Positions 15,277 through 64,000 of a stretch of 64,000 nt of DNA are shown here, piece by piece. How positions within the stretch are numbered: position 1 is the first letter of the stretch; every line of letters starts with the position of its first letter. The DNA is from Polyangiales bacterium (GTDB taxonomy: Bacteria > Myxococcota_A > Polyangia > Polyangiales > Ga0077539): NCBI GenBank assembly GCA_044229975.1, contig JBGARZ010000009.1:283947-347946 (forward strand), read 5' to 3'. The notes under the pieces were generated by a model. It ran no database searches. It saw nothing but the letters and a program-made list of their open reading frames with translations, and was not told the origin of the DNA. Both the position numbers and the translations under genes were made by a program.

Positions 15277-16326
15277 ATGCGACTGCACTACTACCTCCTC
15301 GCCGCGCTCGCCTTCTCCCTCCTGGTCATCATTCACGAGCTCGGTCACTTCCTCGTCGCGAGAGCGTTCGGGATGCGGGCGCGGGTCTTCTCCATCGGCT
15401 TCGGCCCGCCCATCTTCCAGTGGCGACCGAAGGGGAGCGAGACCGTCGTGCAGGTCGCCGCGGTGCCCATCCTCGCCTACGTCAACATCGCGGGCATGAA
15501 CCCGATGGAGCCGAGCGACCCCAACGACCGCGGCAGCTATCAAAACGCCTCGCTCCTCGCGCGCTTCTTCACCATCGCGGGCGGTCCCCTCGCCAACTAC
15601 CTCGCCGCGTCGCTCATCATATTCGCCGTCGTCGCCTTCGCCGGCGTGCAGCGCCCGATGATCGGCGAGGTCGTCCCCAACTCCGCCGCCGCCGCCGCGG
15701 GCCTGCGCCCCAACGACGTGGTGCTCAGCGTCGGCTCCATCGCCCCGGAGGACTTCAGCGAGCTCGCCACCACCATCAACGGCTCGCGCGGCGCGCCCAC
15801 GACCATGCGCATCCGGCGCCAGGGCCGCGAGCTCACGCTGCGCCTCGTGGCCCGCGAAGACCCGACCGACCACCACTTCCGCATCGGCATCCGCCAGGCG
15901 CCGAGCAGCTACACCCAGCGCGTCCCCTTCGCCCTCGCGGTGCGCCACTCCCTCATCGCGCCCGCGCAGCTCACCATCGATCAGTTCGACGGCTTCGCGC
16001 GGATGATCCGCGAGCGGGCGCACGTCGAGGTGATGGGCCCCGTCGGCATCGTCGCCGCCACCGCCAACGTCACCCAGCGCCTCGGCTGGCGCGTCGGCGT
16101 CGGCATCATGGCGCAGATCTCCGTCGCCCTCTTCTTCCTCAACCTCCTCCCCGTCCCGGCCCTCGACGGGGGACGGCTGGTGTTTCTGCTCTATGAGGTG
16201 GTGATGCGCCGGCGGCCCAACGCCCGCTTCGAGACCACCATCACTGCGGTGTTTTTTACGCTCCTCCTGGGCCTGGGTGCCGTGGTCATCGTCCGCGACG
16301 TGGCCAAGCTCGCGACCGGCTCCTGA
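15277..16326 (+). CDS. rseP: RIP metalloprotease RseP (site-2 protease, M50)
   Basis: HELGH zinc motif in first TM helix, PDZ region, LDGG motif (LLPVPALDGGRL). Confidence 0.85.
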   Translation: MRLHYYLLAALAFSLLVIIHELGHFLVARAFGMRARVFSIGFGPPIFQWRPKGSETVVQVAAVPILAYVNIAGMNPMEPSDPNDRGSYQNASLLARFFTIAGGPLANYLAASLIIFAVVAFAGVQRPMIGEVVPNSAAAAAGLRPNDVVLSVGSIAPEDFSELATTINGSRGAPTTMRIRRQGRELTLRLVAREDPTDHHFRIGIRQAPSSYTQRVPFALAVRHSLIAPAQLTIDQFDGFARMIRERAHVEVMGPVGIVAATANVTQRLGWRVGVGIMAQISVALFFLNLLPVPALDGGRLVFLLYEVVMRRRPNARFETTITAVFFTLLLGLGAVVIVRDVAKLATGS

Positions 16327-16375
16327 CACACCCCTCTCGACGCTGACGCCCTTCCTCTGGCATCGTAGCGGTCCT

Positions 16376-16948
16376 ATGCCGATGCGCGCGTCCCACCTCC
16401 TTCGACTTGGTCTCATGGTCACGATGCTCGGCGCCTGCGGCGACGACCCGGCCGGCGCCTTCCCCGAGGAGGACGCCCAGACCGAAGACGCACCGACCTT
16501 CGACATCCCCACCATGGACGCGGGCAACGACGTCGGCACCGTCGACCGCGGCACCCCGCCGGTGGACCGCGGCACCGTCGACCGCGGCGGCGGCAACTGC
16601 CCGGCGAGCTGCACCACCTCGGCCGAGTGCGACCCGTGCCGCACCGGCGACACGCCCGACACCGTTCGCTACTGCTGCATCAGCGGGCTCTGCGTCTCCA
16701 TGACGGGCTCGTGCACCGTCGCGGGCGACGGCGGCACCCCCGACGGAATGGGCGACGCGGCCGAGGGCGGCAGCCCCACGGACGGTCCCGACCTCGACGA
16801 CGCGCCAGACCCCGACGACGGCAGCGGCGGAGACAAGGACGTCGCCACCCCGCCTCCGGTCGACGCCGCCAGCGAGGCGGGCACCACCACCGACGCGGGC
16901 ACCACCTCGATGGACGCGTCCGTGATGGACGCCACCGCCGCCGACTGA
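16376..16948 (+). CDS. Cys-rich lipoprotein, unknown function
   Basis: lipobox LGAC after signal peptide; Asp/Thr/Gly-rich low complexity and 8 Cys. Confidence 0.6.
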   Translation: MPMRASHLLRLGLMVTMLGACGDDPAGAFPEEDAQTEDAPTFDIPTMDAGNDVGTVDRGTPPVDRGTVDRGGGNCPASCTTSAECDPCRTGDTPDTVRYCCISGLCVSMTGSCTVAGDGGTPDGMGDAAEGGSPTDGPDLDDAPDPDDGSGGDKDVATPPPVDAASEAGTTTDAGTTSMDASVMDATAAD

Positions 16949-16990
16949 GGCCCTACCTTCCATTCTGCACCCTTGGCGCGAGCCTCCTTG

Positions 16991-17216
16991 CCGGAGTTCG
17001 CGGGACCCCATCGCAAGTGCGTGCAGTCGCTCACGCCGGGCTATTTCAGGTGGTCACCTCGCTGCGCGAGGTTGCAGTAACTCTAGGCTGGCGATGAACG
17101 AACCGATGGGTTGCTCATCGAAACCATTGCTGCAACCTCGCGCAGCGAGGTGACCACCTGAAATAGCCCGGCGTGAGCGACTGCACGCACTTGCGATGGG
17201 GTCCCGCGAACTCCGG
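16991..17216. repeat. 87-bp perfect inverted repeat (arms 16991-17077 and 17130-17216) with 52-bp spacer
   Basis: reverse complement of the left arm verified base by base against the right arm, 87/87 identical; lies between convergent lipoprotein and PBP1A genes. Confidence 0.95.
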
Positions 17217-17246
17217 TAACGAGGCTCCGAACGTGAGGTCGGAACC

Positions 17247-19793
17247 TCAGTCCGTCGGCGCCGTCGCCGCGTCGTCGCTCACGACCACCACCGGCGCGGC
17301 CACCGGGTTCTCCACCGGCATCGTCGCGCCCGCGTCGCCCACCTCACTCGGAACCACCGCCACCGCGTCCACCGGCGCCACCACTGCGGCGTCGACTGGA
17401 GCCGCTTCGTGGGGCTCGGTGCCCGCGAGGAAGTACTCCTCCATCGAGCTTACCGGTTCGGGTAAGCCCACCGCCGGGAGCATCCCCGTGGCCGGGTCGA
17501 TGCGCACCGCGACCACCCCGTCGGGCCGCGCAAACTCGATCGCCGCCGGGCGCCGCGCCTGCACGTAAGCCTGCATGAACCGCGTCCAGATGGGCACCGC
17601 CGCCCTCGCCCCCTCCTCGGCGTTGCCGAGCGGCTGGCGGTCGTCGAAGCCCACCCACACGCCCGCGACCATGTCCGCCGTGTAACCGACGAACCACGCG
17701 TCGCGCGCCCGGTCGGTCGTCCCGGTCTTGCCCGCGGCGGGGCGGTTGAGCGAGCGGGCACCGCGGGCCGTCCCGTGGTCGATCACCGACGTCATCGCCG
17801 AGGTCACCAGCCACGCCTCGGCGGGCTGCATCGCGACGCGCGGCGGCGCCCTCCCCGGCAGCGGGATCACCCGGTTGTTGGGGCCGCGAATCTCGCGGAT
17901 GAGGGTCCAGTCCTGGTACTGCCCGCGCGCCGCCCAGGTGGCGTACGCGTTGACGAGCTCGATGGGCGTGACGGCGCCGCTGCCGAGCGAGAGCGAGAGG
18001 TCCGACGGCATCGCCGACGTGATGCCCAGCGCCCGCGCGTGCTCGATGACCGACTCGGGCCCGAGCGACTCCATCACCCGCGCGGCCACCATGTTGCGCG
18101 ACATCGCCAGCGCCTCGCGCAGACGCATCCCGGGCTCGATGACCCCGGCAACGGCGTGCGCCTCGGCCGGGCACCACGCCCGACGCCCCGTCCCGAAGCA
18201 CCCCGGGTTGGGATCGACCGTCGACGCCAACGTGTAGTGCCGTGACGCGAGCGCGTACGAGTACAGCACCGGCTTGAAGGCGCTACCCGGCTGGCGCAGC
18301 GCGCGGGTCGCCCGGTTGAACGCCCCAGGCAACGACTCGTACCCACCCACCATCGCGCGCACCTCGCGGGTCCACGGGTCGATGGCGACGAAGGCAGCCT
18401 GGGGTCCGAGTTCGAGGTGGAAGGTTCCGGGTGCGTCGGGGGAGATGCGCTGGTCGGGCGTGACGCGCACCACGGCGCCGACGGGGGCGAAGGTCGCGAC
18501 GGTGGTGTTGTTGGCGTAGCGGGAGAGGCGCGACCAGGCGACGCGACCGGTGGAGGTTCCGACGCGCACGACGAGCGCGGGCGGCGCGGTCTCGATGGCG
18601 GTGATGACCCCGGAGTAGGTGTGGCCGGGGTCGAGCACGCTGTCGCGCGGGGCGGCCTCGGCGCGCAGCACGTTGCCCGACTGGGCGTTGGCGGCGGTGG
18701 AGCGGCGGGTGCCGGGCGCGACGAGCGGGGCGCGGTACCCGTGGCGGGCGTCGATGGTCTGCAACCCGCGGGCGACGACGTCGCGGGCGGCGCGTTGGAG
18801 CTCGCGGTCGATGGTGGTGGTGACGGTGTAGCGGCCGTAACGGAGGGCGTCGTTGCCGGCGACCTGGGCGAGCGTGCGGCGCACCACGTCGATGACCTCG
18901 GGGGCGAGGCCGTCGCCGTCGTCGTCGTCGTGGGCGACGATGTGCAGCGGCTCGCGCTCGGCCTGGTCGGCCTCAGCCTGCGTGATGAAGTTGTTGGCGA
19001 CCATCTGCCCGAGGATCCAGTGGCGGCGCCGCAGCGCGGCGGGCAGGTCGTTGATGGGCGAGTAGTGCACCGGGGACTTCGGGATGCCCGCGAGCAGGGC
19101 GCTCTGGCCGAGGGTGAGGCGCTCGACGGCGAAGTGCTGCACGTCGCGACCATCGCGGCGCTCGATCCACGGCGCGTGGCCGAAGTAGTAGCGCGCAGCC
19201 TCCTCGACGCCGTTGCGTCCGTGGCCGAAGGCAATCTGGTTCACATAGAGGTAGAGGGTGCCTGCCTTGCCGAGCTCGCGTTCGAGGGCGCGGGCGAGCA
19301 GCACCTCGCGCACCTTGCGGGCGAGCGTTCGCTCGGGAGACAGGACGACGTTTTTCACCACCTGCTGGGTGATGGTGCTCGCGCCCTGGGCGACCGTACC
19401 GTGGCGGAGGTTGACGACGAGCGCGCGGAGCATGCCCGTCCAGGCGAGGCCCTGATGCTCGTAGAAGCGCGCATCCTCGGCGGCGAGCAGGGCGCGCACC
19501 GTGTAGTTGGGCAGGCGGTCGAGCTCCACCACCGTCCGGCGCTCGATGAACAACTCCGCGAGCAGCTCGCCGCGGCTGTCGAGCACGCGGGTGGTCTGCG
19601 GCGGACGCCACGCCTGGCGCAGCCCATGGACGTCGGGGAGGTCGCGCCCGTACCAGGCAAAGAGGCCGATGAGCACGAGGGCGCCGGTGAGCACCACGCC
19701 GAAAATACCCAGCGCGAGGAGGGCGACGGCGCGGCTCCATGGGGTGGACGGGGGCTTCTTGGTGCGGCGGGGAGACGTTCGCGGTGGGGCCAT
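17247..19793 (-). CDS. mrcA: penicillin-binding protein 1A (bifunctional glycosyltransferase/transpeptidase)
   Basis: GT51 motifs (EDARFYEH, GASTITQQ), transpeptidase SAFKP and KTGTT; start set at ATG 19793 (MAPPRTS..., N-terminal TM anchor) because the longer ORF to 20813 overlaps a convincing plus-strand gene. Confidence 0.85.
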   Translation of the reverse strand: MAPPRTSPRRTKKPPSTPWSRAVALLALGIFGVVLTGALVLIGLFAWYGRDLPDVHGLRQAWRPPQTTRVLDSRGELLAELFIERRTVVELDRLPNYTVRALLAAEDARFYEHQGLAWTGMLRALVVNLRHGTVAQGASTITQQVVKNVVLSPERTLARKVREVLLARALERELGKAGTLYLYVNQIAFGHGRNGVEEAARYYFGHAPWIERRDGRDVQHFAVERLTLGQSALLAGIPKSPVHYSPINDLPAALRRRHWILGQMVANNFITQAEADQAEREPLHIVAHDDDDGDGLAPEVIDVVRRTLAQVAGNDALRYGRYTVTTTIDRELQRAARDVVARGLQTIDARHGYRAPLVAPGTRRSTAANAQSGNVLRAEAAPRDSVLDPGHTYSGVITAIETAPPALVVRVGTSTGRVAWSRLSRYANNTTVATFAPVGAVVRVTPDQRISPDAPGTFHLELGPQAAFVAIDPWTREVRAMVGGYESLPGAFNRATRALRQPGSAFKPVLYSYALASRHYTLASTVDPNPGCFGTGRRAWCPAEAHAVAGVIEPGMRLREALAMSRNMVAARVMESLGPESVIEHARALGITSAMPSDLSLSLGSGAVTPIELVNAYATWAARGQYQDWTLIREIRGPNNRVIPLPGRAPPRVAMQPAEAWLVTSAMTSVIDHGTARGARSLNRPAAGKTGTTDRARDAWFVGYTADMVAGVWVGFDDRQPLGNAEEGARAAVPIWTRFMQAYVQARRPAAIEFARPDGVVAVRIDPATGMLPAVGLPEPVSSMEEYFLAGTEPHEAAPVDAAVVAPVDAVAVVPSEVGDAGATMPVENPVAAPVVVVSDDAATAPTD

Positions 19794-19916
19794 CGTCAGG
19801 GGCGGGACCGTAGCAGAGGGCCCGCGACGGGAGAGGGTTTCGTCGCGCGAGGGGTTTGGGGTAGAACGGGAGGTGCGGGAGCGTTCGAGTTCTTCGCGGA
19901 GTGAGGAGAGCGGGTC

Positions 19917-20792
19917 GTGAAGCTGCGTACGTCGATGGCGTCGGGTCTCTTGGTGGCGTCGATGGTGATGGGTGCGTCGTCGGCGTGGGCCCAGCCCGCG
20001 CAGCCGTCGGGGGCCGACCGCAACGCCGCGCGCGAGCTCGCCATGCAGGGCATCGCCGCCAACAACCGCCAGGACTGGCCCGTGGTGCTCGACCGCTTCA
20101 CGCAGGCCGAGCAGCGCTTCCACGCGCCCATCCACGTTCGCTACATCGCCATCGCGCTGGAGCACCTCTCGCCGCCGCGCCTCGCCGATGCGGTCGAGGC
20201 CTGGCGCCGCCTGTCGCAGGAGGTGCTCGCCGCCGACGCGCCGCCGCCGTTTCGCGCCGCCGTCGAAGAGGCGCGGCGTGAGCTGCCGCGGGTCGAGGCG
20301 CTGTTGCGCGCGAGCCAGTCGGGCACTGCCGTGACGCCGCCGACCACGCCGCCGACCACGCCGCCGACCACGCCCGTCACGCCGCCAGTGACGACGCCCC
20401 CGGTGGACAACACGCCGCCGGTGAGCGTTCGGACGCCGCCGGAGGGCAACACGGTGACGCGCACGGTGGCCAACCCGCTGCGCACGGTGGGCTTCGTGAC
20501 GGCGGGCGTCGGGGTGGCGGCGCTCATCGGCGGCGTCATCACCGGCGTGATGGCCAACGGGGCGTACAGCGACCTCGAGGGCGCGTGCCCCAACCGCATG
20601 TGCTCGAACTCCAACGACCTGTCGCAGCGCGACACCGTCGACACGCTCGCGGGCATGACCAACGGGCTGCTCATCGGCGGCGGCGTGCTGGCAGCGGCGG
20701 GCGTGGTGCTGGTGCTCGTCGGCGGGCCGCGCACGGAGACCGTGCAGGTGGGCTTCAACGGGCGCGACCTGCTGGTGGGCGGGCGGTTCTAA
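19917..20792 (+). CDS. secreted/membrane-anchored protein with Pro-Thr linker, unknown function
   Basis: GTG start with GAGGAG RBS; signal peptide, helical N-domain, (TPP)n linker, C-terminal hydrophobic segments. Confidence 0.55.
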   Translation: MKLRTSMASGLLVASMVMGASSAWAQPAQPSGADRNAARELAMQGIAANNRQDWPVVLDRFTQAEQRFHAPIHVRYIAIALEHLSPPRLADAVEAWRRLSQEVLAADAPPPFRAAVEEARRELPRVEALLRASQSGTAVTPPTTPPTTPPTTPVTPPVTTPPVDNTPPVSVRTPPEGNTVTRTVANPLRTVGFVTAGVGVAALIGGVITGVMANGAYSDLEGACPNRMCSNSNDLSQRDTVDTLAGMTNGLLIGGGVLAAAGVVLVLVGGPRTETVQVGFNGRDLLVGGRF

Positions 20793-20850
20793 CAACGGCG
20801 CCTCTGCCAGCAACTACGCGCTCCCAGCGCGGGCGTACGACACTGCGGCG

Positions 20851-23563: not shown

Positions 23564-25090
23564 ATGAGAAGGATGTGGCGCGGAGCGGGCGTGGTGCTGG
23601 CGGTGATCGCGGGCTGTGACGACGAGGCGTCGGTGATCGGTGGCGACGCCGACGTGGCCGACGCCGTCGACGTGGTGATGGTGGTCGATCGACCGACGAC
23701 CGACGCGGGCTTCGACGCGGGCTTCACGGACGTCGGAAGCGACAGCGGAGCGGTCGACGTGGGCACCCTCGATGCCGGAACTGACGCGGGTGCCATCGAC
23801 GCGGGGACCGACGCAGGCACCGTCGATACGGGGACCGACGCGGGACCCGCGGATGTGGGCGTCGACGTCGCCGAAGACGTCGCGGTCGATGTGCCCGTCG
23901 ATGTGCCCGTGGACACCGGGCCGACCTGCGCGATGGCGATGATCCTGTGCGGCGACGGCATGTGTCACGACACGCAGGTCGACGTCGCGCACTGCGGCAC
24001 CTGTGGCAACGCCTGCCCGGCCGTCGACGGCGCCGTCCCGCGTTGCTCGGCTGGGGCCTGCGGCTTCGCTTGCAGCGCCTCGCGCGGCGACTGCAACACG
24101 ACGCCGGGCGACGGCTGCGAGGTCGACCTCTCCACGAGCACCGCGCACTGCGGCGGCTGCAACAACGCGTGTGGCGCCGGGCAGACCTGCACCGCGGGCG
24201 CCTGCGTCGACCTGCCGTGCCCGACGGGTCAGTCGCGCTGCGGCGGCGCGTGCGTCGACCGCCAGACCTCCACGCTCCACTGCGGAACCTGCGGCAGCGC
24301 CTGCACCGCGGGCGCCGGGGCGAGCCCGACGTGCAGCGCGGGCGTGTGCGGCCTCGTCTGCAACGCGGGCCTCGCCAACTGCGACGGCATGGCGGCCAAC
24401 GGGTGCGAGGTCGACCTCACCGCGAGCGCGACGAGCTGCGGGCGCTGCGGCGTGACGTGCATCTCGGGTCAGGCGTGCGTGGCGGGCCGCTGCGAGAGCA
24501 CGAGCTGCATGCCACCCGCGGGCTGCTCTGGCGGGAGCTGCGCGTCGTGTACGCGCGTCGCCTTCTCCGAGGATTGGGAGTCGGGCACCGGCCGCTGGAA
24601 CCTTCCGCGCGGCGGCACCACGGCCATCACCACGATGATGGACACGTCGGCGTGCAGCGGGAGCTTCCTGCGCGAGACGGAGCTCTTCAGCGCGGGTCGG
24701 GTGTTTACGCAGTCGAGCATCCCGGTGACGGGCGGGGCGCGCTACTGCGCGACGGCGTGGATTCGCGGCAGCACGGGGACGTGGCCCTTCGTGGGCATGC
24801 GCGCGTCGAGCTCGACGGCGTCCATCGGCACCGAGCACTGGCTCATCGGTCAGCCGTGCTTCGGGACGAGCCTCGCGCCGCCGGTCGCGCCGGTGACGTC
24901 CGACGGCGCGTGGCGGTGGTACTCGCGCGAGTTCACGATGCCCGCGTACACGCACATTTTGTTGGAGATCGAGATCTGGGGCGGCGGCGCGGCAGGCACC
25001 GCGGACTTCGATCAGATCCAGTTGCTGGAAGGGCCGTGTCCGCAGGTGAACCCGAGCACGGTGTGCACGGCCGCCACCTGCGGGAGCTGA
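23564..25090 (+). CDS. lipoprotein with tandem Cys-rich (Stig1-like, HCGxCGxxC) repeats and C-terminal beta-sandwich domain
   Basis: AAGGAG RBS then MRRMWRG..LAVIAGC lipobox; 4-5 repeats VDLxTxxxHCGxCGNACxxGxxCxxGxC typical of myxobacterial Stig1-like cysteine repeats. Confidence 0.65.
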   Translation: MRRMWRGAGVVLAVIAGCDDEASVIGGDADVADAVDVVMVVDRPTTDAGFDAGFTDVGSDSGAVDVGTLDAGTDAGAIDAGTDAGTVDTGTDAGPADVGVDVAEDVAVDVPVDVPVDTGPTCAMAMILCGDGMCHDTQVDVAHCGTCGNACPAVDGAVPRCSAGACGFACSASRGDCNTTPGDGCEVDLSTSTAHCGGCNNACGAGQTCTAGACVDLPCPTGQSRCGGACVDRQTSTLHCGTCGSACTAGAGASPTCSAGVCGLVCNAGLANCDGMAANGCEVDLTASATSCGRCGVTCISGQACVAGRCESTSCMPPAGCSGGSCASCTRVAFSEDWESGTGRWNLPRGGTTAITTMMDTSACSGSFLRETELFSAGRVFTQSSIPVTGGARYCATAWIRGSTGTWPFVGMRASSSTASIGTEHWLIGQPCFGTSLAPPVAPVTSDGAWRWYSREFTMPAYTHILLEIEIWGGGAAGTADFDQIQLLEGPCPQVNPSTVCTAATCGS

Positions 25091-63228: not shown

Positions 63229-63857
63229 GGCGCGCAATCGGTTGGGTGGTGCTGCTGCTGGCGGTGCCCGCGTGGGCCGACCGAACGACGCCGCCGACGA
63301 GGCCGCCGCAGCCGCAGGGGCCGTCGTGTGCGCTGCACGCCGGGTGGGATTTCGTGGGCAGCTACCTCTGCGCGCAGGGCGAGACGGCGCTCACCCTGCG
63401 GGTGCTGGCGGTGCGCGGGACGTCGGTGCGGGCGGAGTTCGTGTTTGCGCACGCGCCGACGTCGGTGGCCGGGCGGTACACGATGCGGGGCACCTGCGTG
63501 GGCGACGAGGTGACGCTCGCGCCCGAGGCGTGGGTGCAGCGACCGGACGGGTACATGATGGTCGGAATGCGGGGGTCGCTCGGCGACGGGGCCGCGCGCT
63601 ACGGTCAGGCCCGCAGTCACCGGGCCCACGCCGCAGCGTCAGCGCGGCGCGCGACGGTCAGGCCCGCAGGCGACTCCGGACAGGGTACTGTGGACGTAAC
63701 CGTCGCGCGCCTTGCTGACGCTGCGGCGTGGGCCCCGGTGACTGCGGGCCTGACCGTCGCGCGCCGGGCTGACGCCGCGGCGTGGGCCCCGGCTCACCCG
63801 AGCACGGTGACCGTGACCCGCCGCGTGTGGGGCGCGTGGCGGTGCTCCCAGAGGTAG
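63225..63857 (+). CDS. secreted protein containing repeat-encoded ADAAAWAP motifs
   Basis: TTG start overlapping NRDE stop (cgTTGAgg), signal peptide LLLAVPAWA; C-terminal third encoded by the inverted/tandem DNA repeat. Confidence 0.5.
   Translation: MRRAIGWVVLLLAVPAWADRTTPPTRPPQPQGPSCALHAGWDFVGSYLCAQGETALTLRVLAVRGTSVRAEFVFAHAPTSVAGRYTMRGTCVGDEVTLAPEAWVQRPDGYMMVGMRGSLGDGAARYGQARSHRAHAAASARRATVRPAGDSGQGTVDVTVARLADAAAWAPVTAGLTVARRADAAAWAPAHPSTVTVTRRVWGAWRCSQR
63603..63800. repeat. inverted repeat, arms about 55 bp (63603-63657 and 63700-63755, 2 mismatches + 1 indel), plus a partial tandem copy (63754-63798)
   Basis: reverse complement of 63603-63657 aligns to 63700-63755 with 53/56 identity; a further direct partial copy follows. 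Confidence 0.8.
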
Positions 63858-64000
63858 ACGCCCTGCCACGTTCCGAGGTCGCACCGGCCTGCTGACACCG
63901 GGATGGTGAGCTCGGAGCCCGTCAGCACGCTGCGAACGTGGGCGGGCATGTCGTCGTCGCCTTCTTCGGTGTGCACATAGCGGCGGTCGCCGTCGGGGAC
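63794..64000 (-). CDS. YjbQ/UPF0047 family protein (C-terminal part; gene continues beyond window end)
   Basis: C-terminus LTGSELTIPVSAGRCDLGTWQGVYLWEHR matches the YjbQ signature (SLTIPI..G.L.LGTWQGIYL.E). Confidence 0.6.
   Translation of the reverse strand, partial: VPDGDRRYVHTEEGDDDMPAHVRSVLTGSELTIPVSAGRCDLGTWQGVYLWEHRHAPHTRRVTVTVLG

Follow-up and report, generated by a model that had tools for sequence, protein, structure and literature searches.

A 226-bp palindrome (16991-17216) that lies between two convergent genes in the window, the whole 64-kb stretch of DNA analysed here, is real, is specific to its lineage and belongs to an ordinary, known class. We put the probability at roughly 70% that it is a REPIN-type mobile element, hairpin-forming and non-autonomous, or equivalently a miniature derivative of an IS200-like element. 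Its arms belong to a multicopy family with different flanks, relatives have nothing at the corresponding site, conservation is stronger in the arms than in the spacer, substitutions are mirrored between the two arms, and the arms are physically linked to a gene for a Y1 transposase.

Architecture of the palindrome and its genomic setting

The palindrome consists of two arms of 87 nt (left, 16991-17077; right, 17130-17216) that are exact reverse complements of each other, around a 52-nt spacer, or loop (17078-17129). Read from its outer to its inner end, the left arm runs CCGGAGTTCGCG...GAGGTTGCAG and is the unit conserved across the family described below; the right arm is its perfect inverted copy. 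The spacer contains a small hairpin of its own, formed by CGATGA (17092-17097) and TCATCG (17115-17120). Pairing stretches outward to arms of 101 nt (16980-17080 and 17127-17227, 97%), with three mismatches, none of which falls inside the 87-nt core. The added 11 nt on each side, GAGCCTCCTTG on the left (16980-16990) and TAACGAGGCTC on the right (17217-17227), are complementary at 9 of 11 positions. This outer extension is not common to other copies of the family; it may belong to the element as a variable outer tail, or it may represent a small hairpin already present at the site and used as the target for insertion.

Shuffled versions of the window produced no comparable inverted match. The RNA fold of 16960-17250 reached -252.7 kcal/mol (z = -27.6 relative to shuffles). 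The element has a G+C content of 62.5%, compared with 71% for the 64-kb window, which holds this one copy and no diverged copies of the arm elsewhere.

Within each arm, two smaller hairpins are predicted. The terminal hairpin, H1, occupies 16991-17039 (arm positions 1-49), with its mirror at 17168-17216. The inner mini-hairpin, H2 (ACCTCGCTGCGCGAGGT), occupies 17056-17072 in the left arm, with its mirror at 17135-17151, and has the form ACCTCGC-TGC-GCGAGGT. H1 was predicted in single-arm folds and H2 in every one of them, with fold stabilities that were not significantly above those of shuffled sequence. In both arms of the window copy, the basal A5-T45 pair of H1 is broken by a G at position 45. 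All three reading frames of the arm, read from outside to inside, are stop-free, and such palindromes give rise to spurious mirror-image ORFs.

On the + strand, the element is preceded by a putative lipoprotein gene (16376-16948) with a probable ATG start at 16376; the ORF as listed spans 16277-16948, and the translation begins MPMRASHLLRLGLMVTMLGAC... It encodes a signal sequence with a lipobox-like LGAC, and a Pfam search of the ORF gave no match. On the - strand lies a gene for PBP1A, a class A penicillin-binding protein (17247-19793; Pfam Transgly, 1.4e-54; Transpeptidase, 1.9e-23), whose homologs are up to 91% identical and 827-843 aa long. The mechanically called - strand ORF (17247-20813) carries about 340 further codons upstream of the likely PBP1A start (MAPPRTSPRR..., 19793); this Arg/His-rich, low-complexity stretch is a high-G+C artefact and lies outside the protein. 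The two genes converge on the element, which is 42 nt from the stop codon of the + strand ORF and 30 nt from that of PBP1A.

Between 16600 and 17600 we detected no U-tract terminator on either strand and no sigma-70 promoter motif. The stem-loop is therefore not followed by the U-tract that defines an intrinsic (Rho-independent) terminator. No Rfam family matched at threshold; miRNA-precursor models scored 25-46 bits against thresholds of 70-90, and these sub-threshold matches are generic long-hairpin noise. No tRNA or tmRNA was found near the element. A sequence-only reading of this region had described the perfect arms and their spacer, the small hairpin within the spacer, the position between the convergent stop codons at 16948 and 17247, and the absence of U-tracts. 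Each of these features was recovered at the same coordinates, with no terminator-like sites in 16600-17600, and the RNA fold given above is one of the checks that this reading had proposed.

The closest relatives keep the gene pair without the palindrome

The nearest relatives of the PBP1A come from MAGs and metagenomes of uncultured Myxococcota (Polyangiales-like), at 91%, 84% and about 78% identity. The gene order is kept in the relatives' loci, with Transglut_core, Peptidase_M50 and a small lipoprotein-like ORF followed by the convergent PBP1A gene. In the two closest relatives (L001 and L002, with PBP1A at 91% and 84%), a syntenic ORF of 189-205 aa adjoins PBP1A. The gap between the lipoprotein and PBP1A genes measures 89 bp in L001 and 8 bp in L002, compared with 298 bp in the window, and it contains no palindrome and nothing similar to the element. 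Diverged copies of the arm were also absent from about 100 kb of relatives' loci (L001-L006). Because the closest relatives keep the gene order and lack the palindrome, the comparison of these loci indicates that it is an insertion into this lineage, made after the split from the nearest sampled relatives.

We also observed the converse case. On contig L008, a copy of the arm adjoins a gene that is 95.7% identical to window positions 63794-64000; a close relative therefore carries the arm at this site, whereas the window does not. Immediately before the end of this - strand gene at 63794, where L008 has its arm-family copy, the window instead carries a second and unrelated palindromic cluster (63581-63789). 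This cluster is BIME- or REP-like and is built of units of about 47-48 nt (e.g. GGGCCCACGCCGCAGCGTCAGCGCGGCGCGCGACGGTCAGGCCCGCAG) in alternating orientation that are 85-96% complementary. Nothing like it was present in any of the relative or metagenome loci compared.

The arm belongs to a dispersed repeat family

Other copies of the arm were sought with two seeds, a 20-mer and an invariant 18-mer. Across 185,579 species-representative genomes, the 20-mer had no match; the 18-mer gave 33 loci in the genome scan, one of them in a Sandaracinaceae MAG, and all were chance matches of 19-26 nt. Viral contigs contained no match to the arm seed, and BLASTN of the element against plasmid and phage collections returned none. 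The 20-mer matched four contigs (L007-L010), all from the JGI metagenome Ga0075163, and every match lay no more than about 200 nt from the end of its contig, as is typical of a repeat at which assemblies break. An additional copy was recovered by searching a protein collection with the three arm frames concatenated, which led through a spurious ORF to an independent ENA contig (L044). The sequence-only reading had stated that an arm unique in the genome, and absent or non-palindromic in close relatives, would speak for a local duplication artefact or an assembly error; the arm proved instead to be present on four metagenome contigs and on the ENA contig, with different flanks.

The arms in L007-L010 and L044 are 95-100% identical to the window arm (95% for those of the metagenome), and their flanks are unrelated. 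The outer boundary is the same in every copy, where ...GAACTCCGG gives way to the flank. Across the related metagenome and ENA assemblies we counted six distinct flanks, and an arm with this boundary occurs in at least five loci outside the window, from two other data sets. Like the window copy, the other gene-less copies lie close to neighbouring ORF ends, at distances of about 15-45 nt.

On the single contig L044, a complete arm is followed by a loop of 52 nt and by 56 nt of a second arm; identity to the window element is 91.8% over 195 nt, and coverage is about 1x. Since the arm-loop-arm layout recurs on this contig, the palindromic architecture is no artefact of the window assembly. The supporting contigs are mostly short and come from short-read metagenome assemblies. 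An 87-nt repeat can produce chimeric joins in such assemblies, so that it is not fully secure which flank, loop and partner arm belong together.

The loops themselves share a conserved motif, CCCATCGAC, which is present in all of them. In L007 (1-100), tandem 12-mers, CCATCGACTCGT, at least eight in number, take the place of the loop region and continue up to the contig end; they represent either a real microsatellite expansion of the loop motif or an assembler loop. Comparison of L010 with L044 gave an apparent hypervariability of the loop at what seems to be the same locus, an observation for which short-read chimerism is a possible source given the 1x coverage of L044.

Arms are conserved over spacers and their changes are mirrored

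Among independent copies, no more than 0-4 of the 87 arm positions vary, whereas the spacers are only 67-81% identical; it is at this level that the window spacer is homologous to the loops of L008, L010 and L044. The window arms show four differences from every other copy and none from each other, so that their private substitutions are mirrored. Under independent evolution at the divergence seen between copies, zero differences between the arms would be expected with P of roughly 0.02-0.05 (Poisson estimate), although polishing with multi-mapping reads could have homogenised the arms of the window. The proposal, made from the perfect identity of the arms, that the element is of recent origin or under strong constraint is borne out by this contrast of four differences with none.

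The variable columns fall at particular places in the predicted hairpins. Columns 21-26 lie at the apex of H1, and column 74, the only variable column in the H2 region, is the centre of the H2 loop; the column-74 variant of L008 is present in both of its stems. The family thus resembles REPINs in that its ends are more conserved than its spacer and its changes are compensatory or mirrored. Relative to the unique flank, the loop has one orientation in winL, L007 and L008 and the opposite orientation in winR, L010 and L044.

Related arms flank a gene for a Y1 transposase

A six-frame chimera of the sequence that L008 and L010 share beyond the loop retrieved the protein P0122, and members of its cluster gave longer contigs. 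P0122 and P0128 contain a Y1_Tnp domain (Pfam, 80.7 bits, 1.2e-22) and pass the NCBIfam model for IS200/IS605 TnpA (transpos_IS200) at 71.8 bits, above its cut-off of 55. Both fail the curated RAYT model, NCBIfam NF047646 REP_Tyr_transpos, at 28.8 bits against a cut-off of 80, a model that may be too narrow because RAYTs are very diverse (PMC5581495). The 144-aa enzyme carries the HUH motif HVHLLV, and the tyrosine in WQRGYGAF aligned to the catalytic Tyr region of 2f4f. Its best solved relatives are the TnpAs of ISDra2, Sulfolobus and IS608. The related contigs thus encode a Y1 HUH transposase with a catalytic tyrosine, as IS200/IS605 elements do.

On contig L048, the Y1 gene (626-1060) lies between inverted repeats of 97 nt that match at 92 of 97 positions and are 466 nt apart. 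Contig L047 has an L048-type arm to the left of its Y1 gene and, on the right (3') side, an arm of the window type that is interrupted by a 443-bp MITE. Once this insertion and one copy of its target duplication are removed, the right arm is 81/90 (90%) identical to the window arm. In both contigs the Y1 gene occupies the position that the spacer holds in the window. The window-type and Y1-flanking arms have their inner 37 nt or so in common, including H2, and in L045, L047 and L048 the H2 stem is one base pair longer, with compensated changes on both sides (CCTCCGC-TGC-GCGGAGG). A cognate HUH/Tyr transposase gene flanked by the inverted repeat, as in REPIN systems, is therefore found on L048, and with one window-type arm on L047.

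The Y1 gene has different upstream flanks in L045, L047 and L048. Its presence in at least three genomic contexts hints at the behaviour of an insertion sequence rather than of a single-copy, domesticated RAYT. The 64-kb window itself contains no Y1 gene.

Other repeats in the related contigs

The 443-bp MITE in L047 (968-1410) is palindromic and separate from the arm family, being self-complementary at 406 of 447 positions, with terminal inverted repeats TTCACTTCGGGACAC. Members of the same MITE family also occur in L045 (1014-1145), L046 (280-588), L008 (1-117) and L010 (1-117). In L047 it sits in the H2 hairpin of an arm and has generated a 9-bp target duplication, CGCGCAGCG; in L008 and L010 it meets the arms at the same position, and in L046 it adjoins unrelated sequence. 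Because it joins the arms at one position in L047, L008 and L010, this MITE may target the arm hairpin.

The left part of L008 and L010 was at one point considered as a degenerate second arm, which was rejected when it showed no pairing with the arm. It was also considered as the N-terminus of the transposase and rejected, since L047 shows it to be an end of the 443-bp MITE and the called Y1 ORF simply reads through it. A repeat module of about 55 nt, 91% identical between L047 (284-338) and L046 (101-155), lies upstream of different elements in the two contigs. Small dispersed repeats of several families thus seem to be present in these genomes. In a coding region of the window (23970-24448) there is also an internal direct repeat of about 170 nt (70-73% identical), which resembles the Cys-rich repeat region at the end of L007 and is probably a repeated protein domain.

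Discussion

REPINs have inverted, conserved ends and a unique, less conserved spacer, form a hairpin as ssDNA or RNA, show compensatory changes, and have a cognate HUH/Tyr transposase that is flanked by the repeat (PMC3116915, PMC3337134). The element described here has the same hairpin layout: a less conserved 52-nt spacer separates two conserved, mutually inverted end modules of 87 nt, the whole folds into a long hairpin as ssDNA or RNA (z = -27.6), and L044 shows the same arrangement. It is likewise extragenic, its changes are compensatory or mirrored, its spacers differ between copies, and inverted copies of the repeat stand on both sides of an HUH/Tyr transposase gene. It differs from REPINs in that its arms are about 87-101 nt long and contain two hairpins each, whereas REPINs have REP cores of 16-25 nt and REP-to-REP distances of 71-110 bp. 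Unlike a RAYT, the transposase scores as an IS200/IS605 TnpA, fails the RAYT model and occurs in several genomic contexts. Most characterised REPIN/RAYT systems come from Pseudomonas and enterobacteria, whereas the host here is an uncultured Myxococcota lineage, and our full-text literature search returned no REPIN/RAYT description for Myxococcota.

Canonical IS200/IS605 elements lack terminal inverted repeats and have both end hairpins on the same strand, and their gene-less derivatives are known as PATEs (PMC7290912). The present family shares with them a Y1 HUH transposase, end hairpins and a miniature form that keeps only the ends, and no target-site duplication flanks the window copy. It departs from them in that inverted repeats of 87-97 nt bound both the gene-carrying and the gene-less forms, so that either strand presents the same hairpins. 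From the flanks of six copies, which have just a loose CC(C)A..GCGC pattern in common, no fixed tetra- or pentanucleotide target emerged of the kind 3' of which IS200/IS605 elements insert. ERIC/IRU, Correia/NEMIS, RUP and BIME clusters are small, non-coding, dispersed and intergenic imperfect palindromes that are co-transcribed with their neighbours and can affect mRNA stability or termination. The element resembles them in being small, non-coding, dispersed and intergenic, but it has no sequence similarity to them and no target duplication. Palindromic MITE-like repeats with known partners depend on DDE transposases and show target duplications.

We propose that the element consists of two inverted end modules of about 87 nt, each with H1 and H2, around a short, fast-evolving spacer, and that its full-length relative carries the gene for a Y1 (HUH) tyrosine transposase in place of that spacer. 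The Y1 enzyme, encoded elsewhere in the genome, would act in trans: it would recognise the end hairpins on single-stranded DNA, cut them and join them again, and so mobilise the gene-less element by way of a hairpin intermediate that is single-stranded. H2 is the likeliest candidate for the hairpin that the transposase recognises. The present copy would have landed between the lipoprotein and PBP1A genes after the split from the nearest sampled relatives. With a free energy of about -250 kcal/mol, the hairpin that transcripts entering from either side would form could act as known REP elements do and stop 3' exonucleases or read-through. Judged from its position and predicted stability, a REP-like effect on the 3' ends or the read-through of both convergent transcripts is plausible but secondary, because relatives lack the element.

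The sequence-only reading had listed several candidates, and its suggestion of a MITE-like or REP-like element is supported by the dispersed arm, the empty orthologous site and the link to a Y1 transposase. If the element were a classical MITE, an internal-deletion derivative of an insertion sequence with a DDE transposase that moves by cut-and-paste through its terminal inverted repeats, it would be expected to look much as it does, being small, non-coding and multicopy in relatives, with long terminal inverted repeats; a true MITE with terminal inverted repeats and a target duplication even coexists in the same populations (L047 968-1410, 9 bp). The window copy, however, shows no direct repeat at either choice of boundary (16991/17216 or 16980/17227), so that the fixed-length target duplication of DDE-type MITEs is missing, and the sole gene found between such arms encodes a Y1 HUH transposase and not a DDE enzyme. 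We consider this origin improbable. A host regulatory RNA, acting on the lipoprotein and PBP1A transcripts as a bidirectional terminator, a stabiliser of mRNA 3' ends or an RNase III substrate, would suit the convergent stop codons 42 and 30 nt away, the extremely stable hairpin formed in either transcript, the similar placement of other gene-less copies near ORF ends and the effects of this kind that REP elements have. It seems unlikely to us as an account of how the palindrome arose, since the closest relatives keep the gene pair without the element, which is therefore no conserved part of the locus. The hairpin also lacks a U-tract and an Rfam family, and a regulatory role fits the mobile-element reading as a secondary effect, not as an alternative origin.

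That the palindrome has no family at all, and arose as a one-off local inverted duplication through a replication template switch or as an artefact of assembly or polishing, would agree with the perfect arms, the single copy in the window and the continuation of the palindrome 11 nt past the family boundary with 9 of 11 matches; multi-mapping reads in polishing could also inflate the likeness of the arms. This explanation is largely refuted by the same arm and boundary at the other loci in two other data sets and by the arm-loop-arm layout of the independent contig L044, and we give it very little credence. That the loop is found both ways round with respect to the long arm and unique flank brings to mind an invertible DNA switch, in which the 52-bp spacer would flip by recombination between the arms. 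In a symmetric palindrome, however, the orientation of the loop is arbitrary at insertion, and short-read contigs do not show reliably how loop and flank are phased across an 87-nt repeat. No promoter-like motif occurs in the spacer and the neighbouring genes include no invertase, which makes such a switch highly improbable. The proposal of a recombination or resolution site found no support. A retron msd hairpin was rejected for want of an adjacent reverse transcriptase and because the arm occurs in several copies whose flanks differ; integron attC, dif and telomere-resolution sites were rejected because their motifs are absent and the family is dispersed.

Within the preferred reading of a REPIN-type or IS200-derived mobile element, a more specific possibility can be put forward tentatively. 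The family might be an independent, early-stage REPIN-like system, in which a transposase of the IS200 clade with long inverted ends has produced gene-less offspring whose arms are kept perfectly paired by a hairpin-dependent homogenising process; we think this joint claim rather more doubtful than not. If it were true, the element would be mobilisable from either strand, unlike canonical IS200/IS605 elements, because both strands present identical end hairpins.

For this locus the finding has little meaning, as it describes selfish DNA between two housekeeping genes and no conserved regulatory device. Such elements do break short-read assemblies of these genomes, as in every metagenome match reported here. 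The H2 and H1 hairpins together with the 144-aa enzyme offer a tractable substrate for the study of hairpin-guided, single-strand transposition. REPINs have been suggested to derive from hairpins on either side of an ancestral IS200-like element (PMC3337134), and the early-stage system considered above, if real, would be the intermediate of that route, which was proposed and not documented. The combination of an IS200-type TnpA, inverted arms of 87-97 nt and gene-less palindromes in this Myxococcota lineage bears on that origin of REPINs from IS200-like elements.
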